Source: a bacterium (GTDB lineage Bacteria; UBA8248). From it: a DNA stretch of 64,000 bases. The translations under genes were made by a program, and so were the position numbers. The notes under the pieces were generated by a model. The model was not told the origin of the DNA, searched no databases, and saw only the letters and a program-made list of their open reading frames with translations. Shown here piece after piece: positions 34,178-62,291 of the stretch. Within the stretch, counting starts at the first letter, position 1; each line of letters starts with the position of its first letter. The stretch lies in NCBI GenBank assembly GCA_965200245.1, contig CBDATS010000002.1, positions 270,986-334,985 of the forward strand, written 5' to 3'.

Positions 34178-34408
34178 GAGAAAGCAGAGGCCAGCGAGGA
34201 GTTCCGCGCCCGCCTGCTCGCTGACCCGAAGGCCGTGGTATCCGAGGAGGTCGGAATCGCTCTTCCGGATGATTGTAACCTCCATGTCGTGTCGGATGAC
34301 GCGGAAAACGGCTATCTGGTACTCCCGCCTGCGCCCCGACTCACCGAGGAACAGCTGGAAGATGCCAGCGGCGGTGTATACGATCCGTTTGGCGGTCAAA
34401 TGCCTTGA
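34178..34408 (+). pseudogene. Second NHLP precursor lacking a start codon
   Basis: EKAEASEEFRARLLADPKAVVSEEVGIALPDDCNLHVVSDDAENGYLVLPPAPRLTEEQLEDASGG-VYDPFGGQMP*. No ATG/GTG/TTG between the upstream in-frame TAG (34103-34105) and 34178. Confidence 0.85.
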
Positions 34409-55947: not shown

Positions 55948-56781
55948 CTAAGAAAAACTCAACTCATCTAGGTCCTGATCATCTTCGCATGCATCTTCTT
56001 CATGCAATAAAAGGGTCATTCTGCGGCCGAAATCACTATTGAGAATCGATGAGTAATACAATTTTCCTATGCTAGCTGTTTCAGGAAACGACCAATCACT
56101 AAAGTCGCATGCATCCATGTTGGAGGGCAAAGGTGTAGTCCCACTGTTGTCTGGATCGGTATATAAATTACTTGGGAAATCTTGAGTTGGCAGGTATATT
56201 CTAAACGCATTTGATTTGATAGGGTTCCACATAATTCCTTGCATATGGATAATTAGGCAACATGACTCTTTAGATAGGGTGATCGTTCTTCTCGCCGCCG
56301 CTTCCAAAGAAACATCACATAATTTCCGTATCTTCTCTACTAGTTCCCATGACAGGCCGTTTTTATGAATGATTGGGGAAATAATAGAGGCTGGCATTAG
56401 AAGTGCTGAAGCAAACTCATTCGCTTCTTTCTCGAAGCTGTCGTTGCTGCCATTTCCAAATGTAATGTCTTCAGTAGTACACTGAAATTTGGACTTCCGG
56501 TTAGTTTGTATATGTAGATGAACATGCCCCAATTCGTGGGCAGCGGTAAATCGTTTTCGATGTCAATTGAGAATATTCGAGTTTACAAGAATCATCGCCC
56601 CATTGGAGTTTCCCATTGATATTCCGTGAAATTTATCTGAATCTATCGCCTTGTCTTCGATGGTAATTTGGTACTGCTTTGAAGACATTGCCTTGCAAAC
56701 TTTTTCTGGAATTACAGGAACTTTATCAAAACCCAAATCTTCCAGAAGTTGTTCGGCCTCAATTATCGACTCCTTTGGCAT
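55948..56781 (-). pseudogene. capP: CapP-like ImmA/IrrE metallopeptidase with in-frame TGA at 56563-56565
   Basis: ILVNSNILN*HRKRFTAAHELGH...EKEANEFASALLMP; the two ORFs are in frame. Confidence 0.82.
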
Positions 56782-57229: not shown

Positions 57230-58323
57230 ATGAACAGCAAAGAAATTTTTCGAGTACTAAGTATAGATGGTGGCATGCGCGGTTACTACAGTGCTGCGTA
57301 CCTTGACCGATTAAGTAATCTCGCAGTTCAACGCTTTGGTCACAAGGGAATTGACTTAGGAAAACAGTTTCAGATGATTGTGGGAACAAGCACAGGCGCG
57401 ATTGTCGGAGCTGGACTTTTAACTGGTATGCCAGCAAATCGAATCATGTCATTTTACTCTTCTTATGGAAAACAAATTTTTCCGCAACAGTTGCCTTCGA
57501 AGTGTCTAAGTTTTCTTTGGCATCGCCGAAAGAAACTTAACAAGCGAGGCGAAGCTGCATTGCGAAATGCACTTGTGGAAGCTTTTGGTGAAATGACGCT
57601 CGGCGAGGTATTTGAAAAGCGGAAGGTTCCCTTTGTTGTTCCAGCGGTCAATGCCACTACACATCGTGGTTGGGTTTTAAAACACCTCACAACCAAGACA
57701 CTAATCACAGAGATGATGATTATTCTTTGGTTGATGTTTGCTTAGCGAGTTCTGCAGCTCCAATTTACCGGTCTCTCGCGACTATCAAGCAACCAAGAAA
57801 ATCGACCACAAAAGATATCTTCGTGGATGGCGGCCTTTGGGCTAACAACCCTGTCCTCGTTGCCTTATCGGAGGCATTACGTTTAGTAGTGCCAAGTCAA
57901 AGTATTGAAATTTTTTGCTTGGGCACATCACCAGCAATAGCAGGTACAGCTTTGGATAGTAGTCGACCTCATTGGGGCTTGCTCGATTGGCGTTTCGGGG
58001 GGCGTGCTTTGGAGTTGGCACTTGATACCCAGAAAAGCATTTTTGACTATCTGGCAGAATGCTTCTCTGGGCATTTTAACAGGGCTGTGAGAATTATTCG
58101 TTTTCCTCAAAGGAAACCTTCAGCCTCTCAAGCAGATTTATTGGGTATAGATTGCTCTTCGATAGCATCTCTGGACCTGATGCGTCAGTTAGCTTCAGCC
58201 GCCGCGGATGACACTAACTCCCTCATGTCAAACGGTTCCGAAACAGGTCAAAGAATCGGGGCTTTATTAAAAAAACAGGAAAAAAGTACTTCTATCAAAC
58301 AAGATGGGGGCAAAAATGTTTGA
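57230..58323 (+). pseudogene. capV: CBASS patatin-like phospholipase effector, split by frameshift at 57675-57682
   Basis: RVLSIDGGMRG, GTSTG, then in the -1 frame KTPH, ASSAAP, DGGLWANNP. Confidence 0.85.
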
Positions 58324-59380
58324 TTGCAATTCAGACTTAATCTCTTTTCACAATAACGAAGTGACCTTGAACTCGACGCAACAGTCGGAAATGCGTGAGC
58401 GCCGCGAAGCTAATCGAACTCGGCTAAAAGAGGGTCTTGATGCCAATGAAGATCCTTCTCCAGATTCACATCAGGCGCAAGGATCATATGCTATGCACAC
58501 GATGGTTCAGGACGAAAACAATGACTACGACATTGACGATGGAGTTATTTTTCTCAAGCAAGACTTAGTCGGTAGCCAAGGAACTGACAAAACAGTATTG
58601 GATACCCGGAAAATGGTACGTTCCGCACTTGATGACGGCTCATTTGAAACAGCTCCAGAAGTGCTAAAAAATTGTGTGCGGGTAATATACAAAAAAGGCT
58701 ATCACGTAGATGTGCCTGTTTACCGGCAGTTGGATGATGATGACACACTCGAATTGGCCAGCAGTGACTGGAAAGGGAGCAGTCCGAGCGATGTTACAAA
58801 GTGGTACAACAAAGCAGTAATTGAAAAAAGCCCTGACACAGATAATGGCCGTCAGCTCCGGCGTATAACTCGATATATTAAAGCATACAAAAACAGCCGG
58901 CCGAGTTGGAAGACCAAGACGGCAAGTGGGTTTGTTATATCCGTTCTTGTTGTTGAGTGTTACACACCTGATGATCGGGATGATGTCTCGATTTACAAGA
59001 CCATGAAGAATATTCGTGATCGTCTAAATCTAAGTTTAGAAGTCTGCCATCCTGTTCGGAACGAGATGTTAACGAAAAGAGCAGATGATGCGCGAACCAA
59101 GCATTTGAGAGAGAAGCTTTCTAACGCGCTTGATGATCTTGGGGTGCTGTTCGACAGTGATTGTACTATGTTCACAGCTTTAAAGACTTGGAATAGCATT
59201 TTTAAACATCAGTTCTGGGTTGATCGAATAGACAAAGAAGAGTCGAAGCACCAAAAAACCGACCTTTTAAGAGGGGGTAATTCAGGTTTGGCTATTACGG
59301 CTGGCCTGAAATCTGCTATGGGTCCATCATATCCCCGTATCAAGCAAACAGAGAGTTACGGTGGCAAGAAGGAGGAGTAA
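58316..59380 (+). CDS. cGAS/DncV-like nucleotidyltransferase (CD-NTase)
   Basis: QGSYAMHTMVQ..DYDIDDG, CVRVIY..GYHVDVPVY, QLRRITRYIK; C-terminal YGG-KKEE. Confidence 0.9.
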   Translation: MFDCNSDLISFHNNEVTLNSTQQSEMRERREANRTRLKEGLDANEDPSPDSHQAQGSYAMHTMVQDENNDYDIDDGVIFLKQDLVGSQGTDKTVLDTRKMVRSALDDGSFETAPEVLKNCVRVIYKKGYHVDVPVYRQLDDDDTLELASSDWKGSSPSDVTKWYNKAVIEKSPDTDNGRQLRRITRYIKAYKNSRPSWKTKTASGFVISVLVVECYTPDDRDDVSIYKTMKNIRDRLNLSLEVCHPVRNEMLTKRADDARTKHLREKLSNALDDLGVLFDSDCTMFTALKTWNSIFKHQFWVDRIDKEESKHQKTDLLRGGNSGLAITAGLKSAMGPSYPRIKQTESYGGKKEE

Positions 59381-59919: not shown

Positions 59920-60432
59920 TTAAAAACCCATTCCAACGATCAAGCGATTCCATGTATTGATGAGCGCGATAGCCCCGAGAAGTTCCACTATTTGCGCGTC
60001 AGAATAGTGCGCTTTCAGCGCTTCGAAAGTTTCATCCGAAACACTCACCCCCTGCGTGCTTTCCTCGCAAAGGCGCAAAGCCACTTTCTCCTTCTCATCA
60101 AAAATGTCGTTTGAGGAACCCTCCTGTGCGGCTTTCGCCTTCTCATCCCCCACCTTGTGCATCCGCGCCATGTTGGAGTGCATGTTGACGCAAAAATGAC
60201 ACCCGTTGAGCGCCGATGCGCGGATGTTCAAGATTTCCTTAAAGCCGATGTCGATCTCTCCCGGACCGTCCGCCACCGTTGTCAGGCTTAGCAAGGAGCG
60301 CAAAAAATCCGGTTTGTGGGCAAGGGCCTTCACGGGCGGAATCACTACTCCGAACTGCTTTTGCAGATTGTCCATGACACGCTTTGCAGACGCTTCGGCC
60401 TGCTCGGGTTCCAACAAGGAAATTCGTGGCAT
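59920..60432 (-). CDS. Carboxymuconolactone decarboxylase/AhpD family protein
   Basis: KEILNIRASALNGCHFCVNMH, YSDAQIVEL, NTWNR. Confidence 0.9.
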   Translation of the reverse strand: MPRISLLEPEQAEASAKRVMDNLQKQFGVVIPPVKALAHKPDFLRSLLSLTTVADGPGEIDIGFKEILNIRASALNGCHFCVNMHSNMARMHKVGDEKAKAAQEGSSNDIFDEKEKVALRLCEESTQGVSVSDETFEALKAHYSDAQIVELLGAIALINTWNRLIVGMGF

Positions 60433-60663
60433 TCCATGCTCCTTCGATAGATTCGAACGGGTAAATACATGCTCACCAGAGACTTTTTCTTCTGAGTGAT
60501 ACTTACGCCACCCAAAGGCTGTCGGTCAATGATACGCCAACCACCCCTTCTCCCGACATCGATGCGTATGGGCGCAAGCACAAAATATCTACTTTTGCTA
60601 AACTGTACTGGCAACATTTGTTCTCCGCTCTATGCGCTCCAAATGAACGGGTGGATGCTATCC

Positions 60664-61491
60664 ATGAACAAACAAGTTTCCCTGAGAGAAGCCGCCGCTC
60701 TCATCAGCGAAGATGACGCCATCAGTCCCGGCGGCACTCTTTTGCACAGAACGCCTGCTGCCCTGATACGTGAAATTGCCCGCTCGGACATTCGGGGTCT
60801 CACCCTCATCAAGCCATCTCCCGGATACGACGCCGACCTGCTTTGCGCCGCAGGCGCCGTGAGCAGAATTATCAGTGGCATAGTCACGTTCGAGGCAGAA
60901 TTCGGCCTGGCGCCTCATTATCGAAAATCGATAGAGAAGGGTTTGACCGGCCTTACAGAACACGCCTGAGCCAGCGTTCTGGCGGGGCTGCGGGCCGCAG
61001 CCTATGGAGTTCCCTTCCAGCCTGTACGTGGATTCGACGGGAGCGACATTCCTGAACAAAGCGGTATCTTCACGTTCGAGGACCCCTATACGAAAGAGGA
61101 ACTCTATGCGATCCCCGCTCTCAAGCCGGACTGGGCGTTGATCCACGTCCAGACATCAGACGCACAGGGAAACGCCCAGATACTGGGTAACCAGCAATTC
61201 GACGTGGAAATGACGCGCGCGGCGCAAAAAGGGGTCATTCTCACAACCGAGAAAATCGTTGACACAGAAGAAATCGCAGCAGAACCGGAGAGAACTGCGA
61301 TTCCGGGCTTTCTTGTCAAGGCGGTCGTGGAAACGCCAGGCGGGGCGTCACCTTGCAGTTGCCATCCATATTACGGAGTGGACAAGGAGGAAATGGGCCG
61401 CTATCTGACCCTGACCCGGGAAGAAGGCGGGCTTCGAAAGTATCTTGCGAGCACTGACCAGAAACGCGAACAAGACGCGGTGACGGAATAA
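60664..61491 (+). CDS. GctA/IpdA-like CoA-transferase-fold alpha subunit, putative selenoprotein (Sec102, TGA 60967-60969)
   Basis: ORFs ending 60969 and starting 61138 are in frame: GGTLLHRTPAALIRE..DLLCAAG..GLAPHYR..EHA-TGA-ASVLAGLRAAAYGVPFQP..DPYT..IPALKPD..HVQTSDAQGN..GGASPCSC. No other lesion. Confidence 0.8.
60970..61002 (+). promoter_or_regulatory. SECIS-like hairpin(s) after in-frame TGA
   Basis: GGCTGCG-GGC-CGCAGCC (60986-61002), G-initiated loop after a 23-nt spacer from UGA; also GCCAG-CGTT-CTGGC (60970-60983). Confidence 0.55.
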
Positions 61492-61493
61492 CC

Positions 61494-62291
61494 ATGGGCA
61501 ACCGACCGGCCTCGCTGCCAGAGCACGTGATCCGTGCCGGCAACCAGATAGCTGTCACCCTCTCCCGCCTTATCAAAAACGGCGAGAAAGTTTTCCACGG
61601 GGTCAACTCACCGCTTCCTATGATTGCGATCTTTTTGGCAAAGAAACTGCATGCTCCCAACTGCTCGCTCATAGAAGTCGCGGGTTCGGTGGACCCCAAA
61701 CCACGCTTCATGCCGAACAGTACTGCCGACCCGGAACTTTGCCACGGCGCGGCTTCCATGTTCTACAATCCGGACATGTACGACCTGGTCTCTCGCGGGG
61801 GAGTGGACCTTGCTTTTCTGGGAGCAGCCCAACTCGACAAGCCGGGACACGCCAACATGAGCTACATCGGCGACCCGTTCCACCCGAAAGTGAGACTCCC
61901 CGGCGGAGGGGGAGGCGCCGTCATCATGCCGCAGGTGAAACGAACCGTCATCTGGAGAACCGTGCACGACAGACGATTTCTCGTACCCCGTGTCGATTTC
62001 TCAACGCAATCGGGCAATCTGAGCAACGTCGTAACGCCCATGGCCCTGTTCGAGAAAAAATCCACCGGGCTCGAGATCGCCAGTGTCCACGCAGGCTACT
62101 CACTGGATGAAGTGATCGAGAAAACGGGCTTCAACCTAGAACGCCCGAGCGTCGTAACGCAAACCCCCGAACCGAGCGCCGGGGAACTGAGCGCTTTGGA
62201 GGAACTCGATCCCGATGGTGTGCGTTTTTCGGAATTTCGTATAAAACCACAGACATTCGTTGGTACGACAAGTGCCCAATTCTCTACATGA
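61494..62291 (+). CDS. GctB/IpdB-like CoA-transferase-fold beta subunit
   Basis: LAKKLHAPN, DLAFLGAAQLDKPGHANMSYIG, VRLPGGGG, VDFST, VIEKTGF. Confidence 0.9.
   Translation: MGNRPASLPEHVIRAGNQIAVTLSRLIKNGEKVFHGVNSPLPMIAIFLAKKLHAPNCSLIEVAGSVDPKPRFMPNSTADPELCHGAASMFYNPDMYDLVSRGGVDLAFLGAAQLDKPGHANMSYIGDPFHPKVRLPGGGGGAVIMPQVKRTVIWRTVHDRRFLVPRVDFSTQSGNLSNVVTPMALFEKKSTGLEIASVHAGYSLDEVIEKTGFNLERPSVVTQTPEPSAGELSALEELDPDGVRFSEFRIKPQTFVGTTSAQFST

Follow-up and report, generated by a model that had tools for sequence, protein, structure and literature searches.

Sequence-based evidence for a selenocysteine codon in the alpha subunit of a CoA-transferase-fold heterodimer from Nitrospinota

In the 64,000-nucleotide stretch of a Nitrospinota genome considered here (contig CBDATS010000002.1, positions 270,986 to 334,985 of the forward strand; below, the window), the alpha subunit gene of a class-I CoA-transferase-fold heterodimer is crossed by a single in-frame TGA. 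The question is whether this codon is a stop or is read as selenocysteine (Sec) and, in the latter case, what a selenol might do in an enzyme of this fold. The original prediction, made from the letters of the window alone, had placed Sec at the catalytic position of a protein related to GctA and IpdA. As far as sequence analysis can establish it, codon 102 of this gene is a genuine selenocysteine codon, and we consider it quite probable that the product is a true selenoprotein, the alpha subunit of a non-transferase acyl-CoA enzyme with Sec, or Cys in its relatives, as nucleophile or acid/base. The elements concerned are the following.

60664..61491, + strand: alpha subunit gene of the class-I CoA-transferase-fold heterodimer, 275 codons, with Sec at codon 102
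60967..60969, + strand: UGA predicted to be read as Sec, residue 102 (TGA/TGY conservation, structure model, RNA-library contig)
60985..61003, + strand: bacterial SECIS-type (selenocysteine insertion sequence) hairpin inside the coding sequence; stem 60985-60991 / 60997-61003, invariant loop G G C at 60993-60995
61494..62291, + strand: beta subunit gene, 265 amino acids (aa), starting 2 nt after the alpha stop; PF01144, 66.4 bits

Decoding of the in-frame TGA

The alpha frame opens with an ATG at 60664 and runs through 275 sense codons to a TAA at 61489-61491. Its sole internal stop is the TGA at 60967-60969 (codon 102, context TEHA-U-ASVLAGLRAAA), and re-reading of the frame thus bore out the single interruption of a 275-aa subunit described earlier. 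The match to the Pfam family CoA_trans (PF01144) spans this codon, covering residues 7-223 and scoring 68.4 bits (cut-off 23). Positions 60918-61177 are also covered by an RNA-library contig in which the TGA is intact, and a second such contig crosses the alpha/beta junction; two DNA contigs of another study are identical across the whole stretch and may be the source of this DNA. At position 61154 the contigs from two RNA-library runs have A for C, which changes Thr164 to Lys, the commoner of the two residues at alpha position 164 among orthologs, and this difference is probably strain variation.

Within the phylum, TGA is present at this column in 34 of 51 species genomes. The 35 matches concerned (63-100% identity) belong to five genera of one family, and each of them contains exactly one TGA, while two paralog groups of the phylum, with about 45-53% and about 36% identity to alpha, are free of the stop. 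TGA is codon 102 in all 30 orthologs that were fetched from the Nitrospinota, in the context TEHAU[AP]S[VI]LAGLRAAAYG. Eight of these 30 end the same gene with TGA as a real stop, which indicates that TGA is a normal stop in these organisms and not a general sense codon.

A wider search, whose pattern was an alignment of the short C-terminal fragments made by gene callers, gave a set of 141 loci in several phyla (61 from species genomes and 80 of the 183 metagenome loci). The codon at the Sec column of this set is TGC in 18 loci, TGT in 9, TGA in all the others (114) and never anything else. The TGA form occurs in Nitrospinota, Thermomicrobiaceae, Chloroflexota, Candidatus Sulfotelmatobacter, Methylomirabilia, Rokuibacteriota, 'ANGP1', Limnocylindria and Deferrimicrobiaceae and on many metagenome contigs; the Cys form occurs in Achromobacter, Cupriavidus, Halomonas, Methylobacterium, Pseudoxanthomonas, Noviherbaspirillum, Myxococcaceae and Solirubrobacteraceae. 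The 20 Cys paralogs from the same phylum have TGC (15) or TGT (5) at this place. At the level of residues, 294 aligned sequences contain Sec (143), Cys (129), Glu (9), His (8), Ser (3), Gly (1) and Ala (1), the last five types being outgroups, and none of the 294 has Trp or Arg. The original prediction had looked for Cys or a conserved TGA at this column, and this is the pattern both of the 30 orthologs and of the 141 wider loci; the opposite signs it had named were a TGA unique to this assembly, which is at odds with the 34 phylum genomes and the other phyla that carry it, and homologs with Trp, Arg, Gly or Ser and never Cys, which is at odds with the 129 Cys sequences.

The TGA is followed by a hairpin. 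Its stem has 7 bp, including a terminal G-U pair, and encloses the loop GGGCC (the minimum free energy fold has 8 bp and a GGC loop). The stem begins 15 nt and the G-led loop about 22-23 nt past the UGA, so that the 7-bp hairpin with a G-led loop reported earlier was recovered, its distance of 23 nt being that of the loop and not that of the stem. In the 30 orthologs the synonymous (codon-level) entropy has its minimum on the hairpin (0.43 at codons 107-115 versus a gene mean of 0.98), and the homologous stretch of the 20 Cys paralogs has a synonymous variation of 1.42 and no hairpin. In a covariation alignment of 60 distinct-clade sequences with 57 distinct rows (alignment A3), the 7-bp helix is paired in 98.2% of cells, a share that drops to 37-56% if the 3' arm is displaced by 1-3 columns, and the observed pairing and covariation score were matched by 0 of 500 shuffles. 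The stem contains compensatory changes from C-G to A-U in 13 sequences and from G-C to C-G in 6, and the loop residues G27, G28 and C29 are invariant in the 60 sequences. RNAalifold independently gives the identical helix together with a loop-closing pair that has switched, in 7 sequences, from G-C to A-U. Of 82 distinct TGA sequences, 77 contain a G+C-rich hairpin with a loop G and no fewer than 5 bp, and the same holds for 10 of 43 distinct Cys sequences. The sequences compared are related, and the p-value is overstated for that reason; the G+C content of the compared regions is equal (0.73 and 0.72), and the mean folding energies are -15.0 kcal/mol for the 82 TGA sequences versus -11.3 kcal/mol for the 43 Cys sequences. 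The bacterial SECIS consensus, which is said to go back to Zhang and Gladyshev in 2005, reportedly consists of a stem-loop shortly after the UGA with a conserved G in the apical loop, and the alpha hairpin has both. Thus the SECIS element expected by the original prediction has its counterpart in a covarying hairpin with an invariant GGC in the loop that is far less frequent in the Cys forms.

Two further observations concern this hairpin. One of its pairs (columns 22 and 34 of alignment A3) passes from C-G to A-U through a coupled Leu-to-Met and Ala-to-Ser change, AGLRAAA becoming AGMRAAS, when loci L080-L093 and L132-L137 are compared with L011-L040. As the two coupled substitutions hold this one stem pair, the RNA structure constrains the protein sequence, and the SECIS thus shapes the protein. 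In a large group of metagenome contigs (L155-L201, 'LEEHA-U-MTLVAGLRAA') the hairpin is shorter and lies one codon nearer to the UGA (stem GGCTG/CAGCC, loop CGTG); this group is outside alignment A3 and is included in the comparison of 82 TGA with 43 Cys sequences.

The genome possesses selA (572.7 bits), selB (391.9 bits), selD (338.6 bits) and tRNA-Sec. Among ten TGA-bearing genomes outside the phylum, selA is above the cut-off in nine and selB in the tenth, and two of the five Cys-form genomes tested are without selA; within the phylum selA is present in 49 of 51 genomes, which makes the contrast of Sec and Cys forms by selA uninformative there. The expectation that the TGA form would go together with the Sec machinery is therefore supported both in this genome and in all ten tested outside the phylum. 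The selD gene (G000:C8:72779-73741, - strand) is itself a selenoprotein gene with its own in-frame TGA ('VKAGGUGSKLG') and a hairpin about 15 nt past the UGA, similar in geometry and spacing to the alpha hairpin. Taken together, the conservation of the TGA, the covariation of the hairpin and the presence of the Sec machinery argue for selenocysteine decoding, in which UGA-102 would be read by SelA, SelB, SelD and tRNA-Sec as directed by the coding-region hairpin 15 nt downstream.

Public gene callers treat the locus as though the TGA were a plain stop and deliver C-terminal fragments of 152-174 aa, some of them named 'hypothetical protein'; the gene would then be a pseudogene, or would consist of two pieces, of 101 aa and about 166 aa, that are translated separately. 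We regard this as very improbable, because TGA occupies one column in 144 loci of several phyla with the protein conserved on both sides of it, because relatives carry Cys at the same column and because the read-through protein has a confident predicted fold. Moreover, the called fragments start at no fewer than 7 different columns, hence there is no conserved restart codon, and the hairpin with its compensatory changes stands directly past the TGA and is missing in the Cys forms. Were the TGA read as Trp or Gly, be it by near-cognate read-through or under an alternative genetic code, the frame would likewise be open; nothing specific speaks for this reading, and it is even harder to accept, given that the same gene ends in TGA in 8 of 30 orthologs, that the homologous residue within the family is Cys and never Trp or Gly, and that the Sec machinery is complete, with selD itself containing a TGA. 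Several points weigh against selenocysteine decoding. The share of 114 TGA among 141 loci is query-biased, since the search pattern was built from Sec-type fragments, and the RNA-library contigs are a weak sign of transcription, since such libraries can contain DNA. The folding energy of the 64-nt region is unremarkable (z = 0.05 versus shuffles), so that the significance of the hairpin comes from comparative data and not from thermodynamics, and an Rfam scan of 60600-61500 returned two chance-level matches and no SECIS family. The case for selenium incorporation, finally, is built on comparative sequence data.

The two subunits and the selenocysteine column

Among solved structures, HMMER finds AibA (5mzw, 1.6e-30), IpdA (6con, 5.7e-29; 6co6/6coj, about 1e-27 to 4e-28) and GctA (1poi, 3.1e-26) nearest to alpha. 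The AlphaFold2 model of the read-through protein has a mean predicted local distance difference test (pLDDT) of 96 and a predicted template-modelling score (pTM) of 0.92, and its best Foldseek matches are IpdA (template-modelling score 0.89), GctA (0.89) and AibA (0.87). In this model Sec102 is the first residue of helix 102-114 and directly follows strand 96-99. The gap-free alignment with IpdA that had been proposed earlier was reproduced by HMMER, which pairs Sec102 with the Glu of 'REMDEGM'. Over the aligned positions, 6co6_A and 6coj_A disagree only at the residue opposite Sec102, which is E in the former and A in the latter, and the title of PDB entry 6coj reads 'IpdAB E105A COCHEA-COA complex'; the Sec102 column is therefore that of IpdA Glu105. 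This Glu is reported to be the catalytic residue of IpdAB, in keeping with the title of the entry, and by homology Sec102 probably lies in the active site.

The relations of the residue types at this column were traced on a quick maximum-likelihood tree (LG+G4, unrooted, 100 representatives clustered at 80% identity) with supports from the Shimodaira–Hasegawa-like approximate likelihood ratio test (SH-aLRT) only. The Cys and Sec forms make up one clade with 99% SH-aLRT (57 Cys and 23 Sec representatives), adjoined by a Sec-only Deferrimicrobiaceae group, and the types with Glu, His, Ser, Gly or Ala are not part of this clade. Eight changes between Sec and Cys are placed on the tree, and well-supported branches make at least 6 of them necessary. 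In 82 of 82 family representatives the column is Cys or Sec, and alpha has no other invariant thiol or selenol, the remaining Cys residues being less conserved (C61 68%, C233 74%); Lys50 and Tyr55 are family-specific. To our knowledge, an invariant alpha Cys/Sec is not known in CoA-transferases. This one column of the GctA/AibA/IpdA superfamily may be viewed as a catalytic hot-spot, occupied by Glu, His, Ser, Gly or Cys/Sec according to the clade, and it offers enzymologists a residue to work on. Of the claim that Sec replaces the catalytic carboxylate, the match of the columns stands, and the direction of the change is not given by an unrooted tree.

The same genome contains two more alpha/beta pairs, at G000:C4:792668-794259 (- strand) and G000:C4:100613-102443 (- strand). 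One of them is a Cys-type paralog of about 50% identity ('EHACSTVIAGLRAS'). The second paralog, of about 36% identity ('EEWSHMS'), is of the His type; an F-E-G-G motif is retained in its beta subunit, and this pair is possibly a true CoA-transferase. Genus g9 is represented by five genomes, and in four of them the Sec-type and Cys-type alpha genes stand on one strand at a distance of about 0.8 kb, in tandem operons (G047:C378:33757-36166, G046:C122, G048:C123 and G049:C60; loci L037 and L059).

In the wider set, 103 of the 114 Sec loci have the beta gene next to alpha, and so do 25 of the 27 Cys loci. With CoA_trans domains of 68.4 bits in alpha and 66.4 bits in beta, encoded by adjacent genes, the pair has the two-domain constitution of class I CoA-transferases. 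The nearest solved structures of beta are AibB (about 1e-31) and GctB (1.1e-23), IpdB being a weak match (E 0.0017). The conserved catalytic Glu of glutaconate CoA-transferases is Cys56 in AibB, according to PMC7756340. This Cys56, located through the AibB variants in the PDB, aligns without gaps to beta Val62, so that the catalytic Glu of the E-x-G motif of class I is not found here, and the column is Val, Ile or Phe in 119 of 119 family beta subunits. Like AibAB and IpdAB, the family thus appears to be devoid of the nucleophile that defines class I CoA-transferases. The residue before this column is Glu (E61) only in the Nitrospinota clade (27 sequences), and elsewhere it is Asn, Thr, Ser, Phe or Ile (91 of 91). 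Glu31 of beta is at least 95% conserved, and the family beta subunits compared contain no Cys that reaches this level.

The operons of the Cys-type relatives are of interest in this respect. In Achromobacter and Cupriavidus the alpha/beta genes have a family-III CoA-transferase on one side and an AMP-forming acyl-CoA synthetase on the other, with an enoyl-CoA hydratase also present in Cupriavidus, and in Halomonas an acyl-CoA synthetase follows downstream. An operon with a CoA-transferase or synthetase of its own suggests that the activation with CoA is supplied by other enzymes. At a soil Sec-type locus the pair is adjoined by a TctC-type carboxylate-binding protein.

Gene neighbourhood and possible role of the selenocysteine

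On balance we favour a directly catalytic, non-transferase role of the Sec/Cys residue, judging from the comparison of sequences. The enzyme would transform an acyl-CoA, probably a dicarboxylic or unsaturated one, without transfer of CoA, as AibAB and IpdAB do. The substrate would be bound and the reaction run at the alpha/beta interface, and C-C cleavage, decarboxylation, isomerisation or hydrolysis may be envisaged. The selenolate or thiolate might serve as a nucleophile, taking over the acyl group as a seleno- or thioester or adding to an unsaturated acyl-CoA in the Michael manner, or as a general acid/base that would aid decarboxylation, hydration or retro-Claisen cleavage.

The genes next to the alpha/beta pair in the window are AhpD-like, RraA-like, RlpA and CBASS (cyclic oligonucleotide-based antiphage signalling system) genes, the first two of which have been considered in connection with its function.

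59920..60432, - strand: AhpD/CMD-family gene with a CHFC (CxxC) motif, divergent; PF02627
62329..62970, + strand: RraA-like gene (class II aldolase / oxaloacetate decarboxylase family); PF03737, 106.9 bits

The AhpD-like neighbour is present in 28 of 30 and the RraA-like neighbour in 27 of 30 Nitrospinota loci, and neither is conserved beyond the Nitrospinota clade: among the 114 Sec loci of the wider set they accompany 22 and 23, respectively (for the RraA-like gene all with at least 62% alpha identity), and none of the 27 Cys loci. Both are missing at the tandem operons of genus g9. The AhpD-like gene scores 84.7 bits with NF053654, 'YciW-related (seleno)protein', below the cut-off of 310. 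In Nitrospinota the RraA-like aldolase/decarboxylase would probably handle the product or the substrate, and the divergently encoded AhpD-like CxxC protein may hold the selenol in the reduced state.

It could also be supposed that Sec is real and has a redox or regulatory role, as a peroxide- or disulfide-sensing switch, as a carrier of persulfide or of a CoA-mixed selenosulfide, or in a reductive reaction via the AhpD-like CxxC protein, and that CoA-transferase activity may be retained by means of another carboxylate, such as beta Glu61 in Nitrospinota or beta Glu31. Most known prokaryotic selenoproteins are thiol-oxidoreductase-like, and nearly all known selenoenzymes use Sec in redox chemistry, according to PMC13188914, which counts against a non-redox catalytic role. 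The divergent linkage of the CxxC AhpD-family gene in 28 of 30 Nitrospinota loci is consistent with a redox role as well; outside the Nitrospinota clade, however, no Sec locus has this neighbour, and none of the 27 Cys loci has it either. The AlphaFold2 model places Sec at a helix N-cap, a typical site of redox-active Cys or Sec, but there is no UxxC/CxxU motif, no second invariant Cys in alpha and no beta Cys of at least 95% conservation, and Sec aligns with the residue that was mutated to trap the substrate in IpdAB. As to retained transferase activity, Glu61 adjoins the canonical beta column in Nitrospinota, where a register shift by one residue would restore a transferase-like Glu, and Glu31 is highly conserved; Glu61 is nevertheless absent in 91 of 91 other members of the family. 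We therefore hold a redox or regulatory role of this kind to be unlikely. Two further points tell against the catalytic role: the position of Sec relative to the thioester follows from homology and not from a distance in coordinates, and the tree was made by a quick method and contains several long branches.

A more specific version of the catalytic role, which we put forward tentatively, is that this may be the first selenoenzyme of acyl-CoA carbon-skeleton chemistry, in which the selenolate would attack the substrate, with formation of a selenoester or a seleno-Michael adduct, in a non-redox C-C cleavage, decarboxylation or isomerisation. If so, the CoA-transferase fold would have arrived independently at a third catalytic solution, Cys/Sec, in addition to that of AibAB and to the Glu of IpdAB, and a widespread pathway of dicarboxylates or unsaturated acids would exist in Nitrospinota, Chloroflexota, Acidobacteriota, Methylomirabilota and soil bacteria.

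Some other features of the window may be noted. A CBASS-type defence pair lies upstream, at window positions 57670-59380 on the + strand.

57670-58323, + strand: patatin-like phospholipase fragment or open reading frame; PF01734, 32.9 bits
58304-59380, + strand: cGAS/DncV-like nucleotidyltransferase; NF041078 (CBASS cGAMP synthase), 135 bits, below the cut-off of 150

The scan of the window gave 38 read-through candidates including the alpha gene. A second convincing selenoprotein had been announced in the window; none emerged among the 30 of the 37 other candidates that were searched against families, small proteins being outside the filter. One frame at 55948-56781 (- strand), of the ImmA/IrrE-type Peptidase_M78, contains a single TGA at codon 73 (56563-56565), which its Pfam match (residues 54-165, 63 bits) spans; situated next to the defence island, this frame probably represents a broken gene. 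A short open reading frame at 34235-34406 (+ strand) resembles an NHLP-type leader of a ribosomally synthesised and post-translationally modified peptide (TIGR03793, 33.7 bits, below the cut-off of 50.9), with a Gly-Gly motif followed by a short core and a TGA stop.

Novelty of the family and comparison with known systems

We rate the locus as a new selenoprotein family and as a new Cys/Sec-type catalytic variant of the GctA/AibA/IpdA superfamily. Table 1 of PMC13188914, an inventory of May 2026 that calls itself the most comprehensive one for prokaryotic selenoproteins, has no PF01144 or CoA-transferase entry among its 119 families or subfamilies. The only acyl-CoA-related names in this table are CoA-disulfide reductase, HgcA and a DsbA-like/crotonase fusion, which have unrelated folds. 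The passages searched in PMC2398784 and PMC9312934 do not list the family, and those in PMC7176365 have nothing on a Sec-containing CoA-transferase. A Sec-containing protein of the CoA-transferase fold was not found in the literature searched, the supplementary candidate lists of which could contain it. NCBIfam release 20 offers no specific model for alpha, the best score being 32 bits against cut-offs of 128 and 315. The homologs of alpha are named 'glutaconate CoA-transferase subunit A' in databases, and the public records of the Sec forms are fragments of 152-174 aa, some of them called 'hypothetical protein'. The earlier view that this is not a characterised selenoprotein family is thus in agreement with its absence from the inventory and with the fragmentary state of the records.

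A selenoprotein family would in this way be added to a fold so far known for carboxylate-based catalysis. The distribution of the family among environmental bacteria is wide (over 140 TGA-bearing loci were found), and since the databases hold truncated fragments, the enzyme is left out of metabolic reconstructions of the nitrite-oxidising Nitrospinota and of many soil and groundwater lineages. Experiments appear feasible with the Cys-type homologs of the cultivable Cupriavidus, Methylobacterium and Halomonas, which stand in operons with CoA ligase, family-III CoA-transferase and enoyl-CoA hydratase.

With the known prokaryotic selenoproteins alpha shares the in-frame UGA, the Cys homologs, the repeated interconversion of Sec and Cys, the SECIS in the coding region close after the UGA and an occurrence confined to genomes with Sec machinery; it differs from them in having neither a thioredoxin-like fold nor a UxxC/CxxU motif.

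The best sequence match of both subunits is AibA/AibB, the 3-methylglutaconyl-CoA decarboxylase of Myxococcus xanthus (PDB 5mzw-5n03), which is likewise a heterodimer of two CoA_trans domains. According to PMC7756340, AibAB has lost the canonical beta Glu and acts on an acyl-CoA without CoA transfer. The identity to alpha and beta is about 31-32%, and the context of the aib operon is not present at this locus. AibA has Gly ('EHDGY') at the Sec column and AibB has Cys56 where the beta family has Val, Ile or Phe, so that the residue pattern of AibA/AibB, a beta Cys with an alpha Gly, is not that of the pair described here.

IpdAB, the ring-cleaving retro-Claisen hydrolase of cholesterol degradation in Mycobacterium and Rhodococcus (6con, 6co6, 6co9, 6coj), is the top structural match. 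It resembles the present protein in having the candidate catalytic residue on alpha and at the same column, Glu105 against Sec102, and IpdB presumably lacks the transferase Glu as the beta family does. It differs in that this residue is a carboxylate and not a selenol or thiol, the Glu-type relatives lying outside the Cys/Sec clade. Genes of IpdAB type are set in a steroid-catabolic (KstR2-type) context; neither this context nor the alpha Glu105 is found at this locus, no steroid-pathway genes being seen within the 8 kb examined. Finally, the glutaconate CoA-transferase GctAB (1poi) and other class I enzymes have the same fold and the same two-subunit architecture, but they contain the catalytic beta Glu at the place where the family described here has Val, Ile or Phe throughout.

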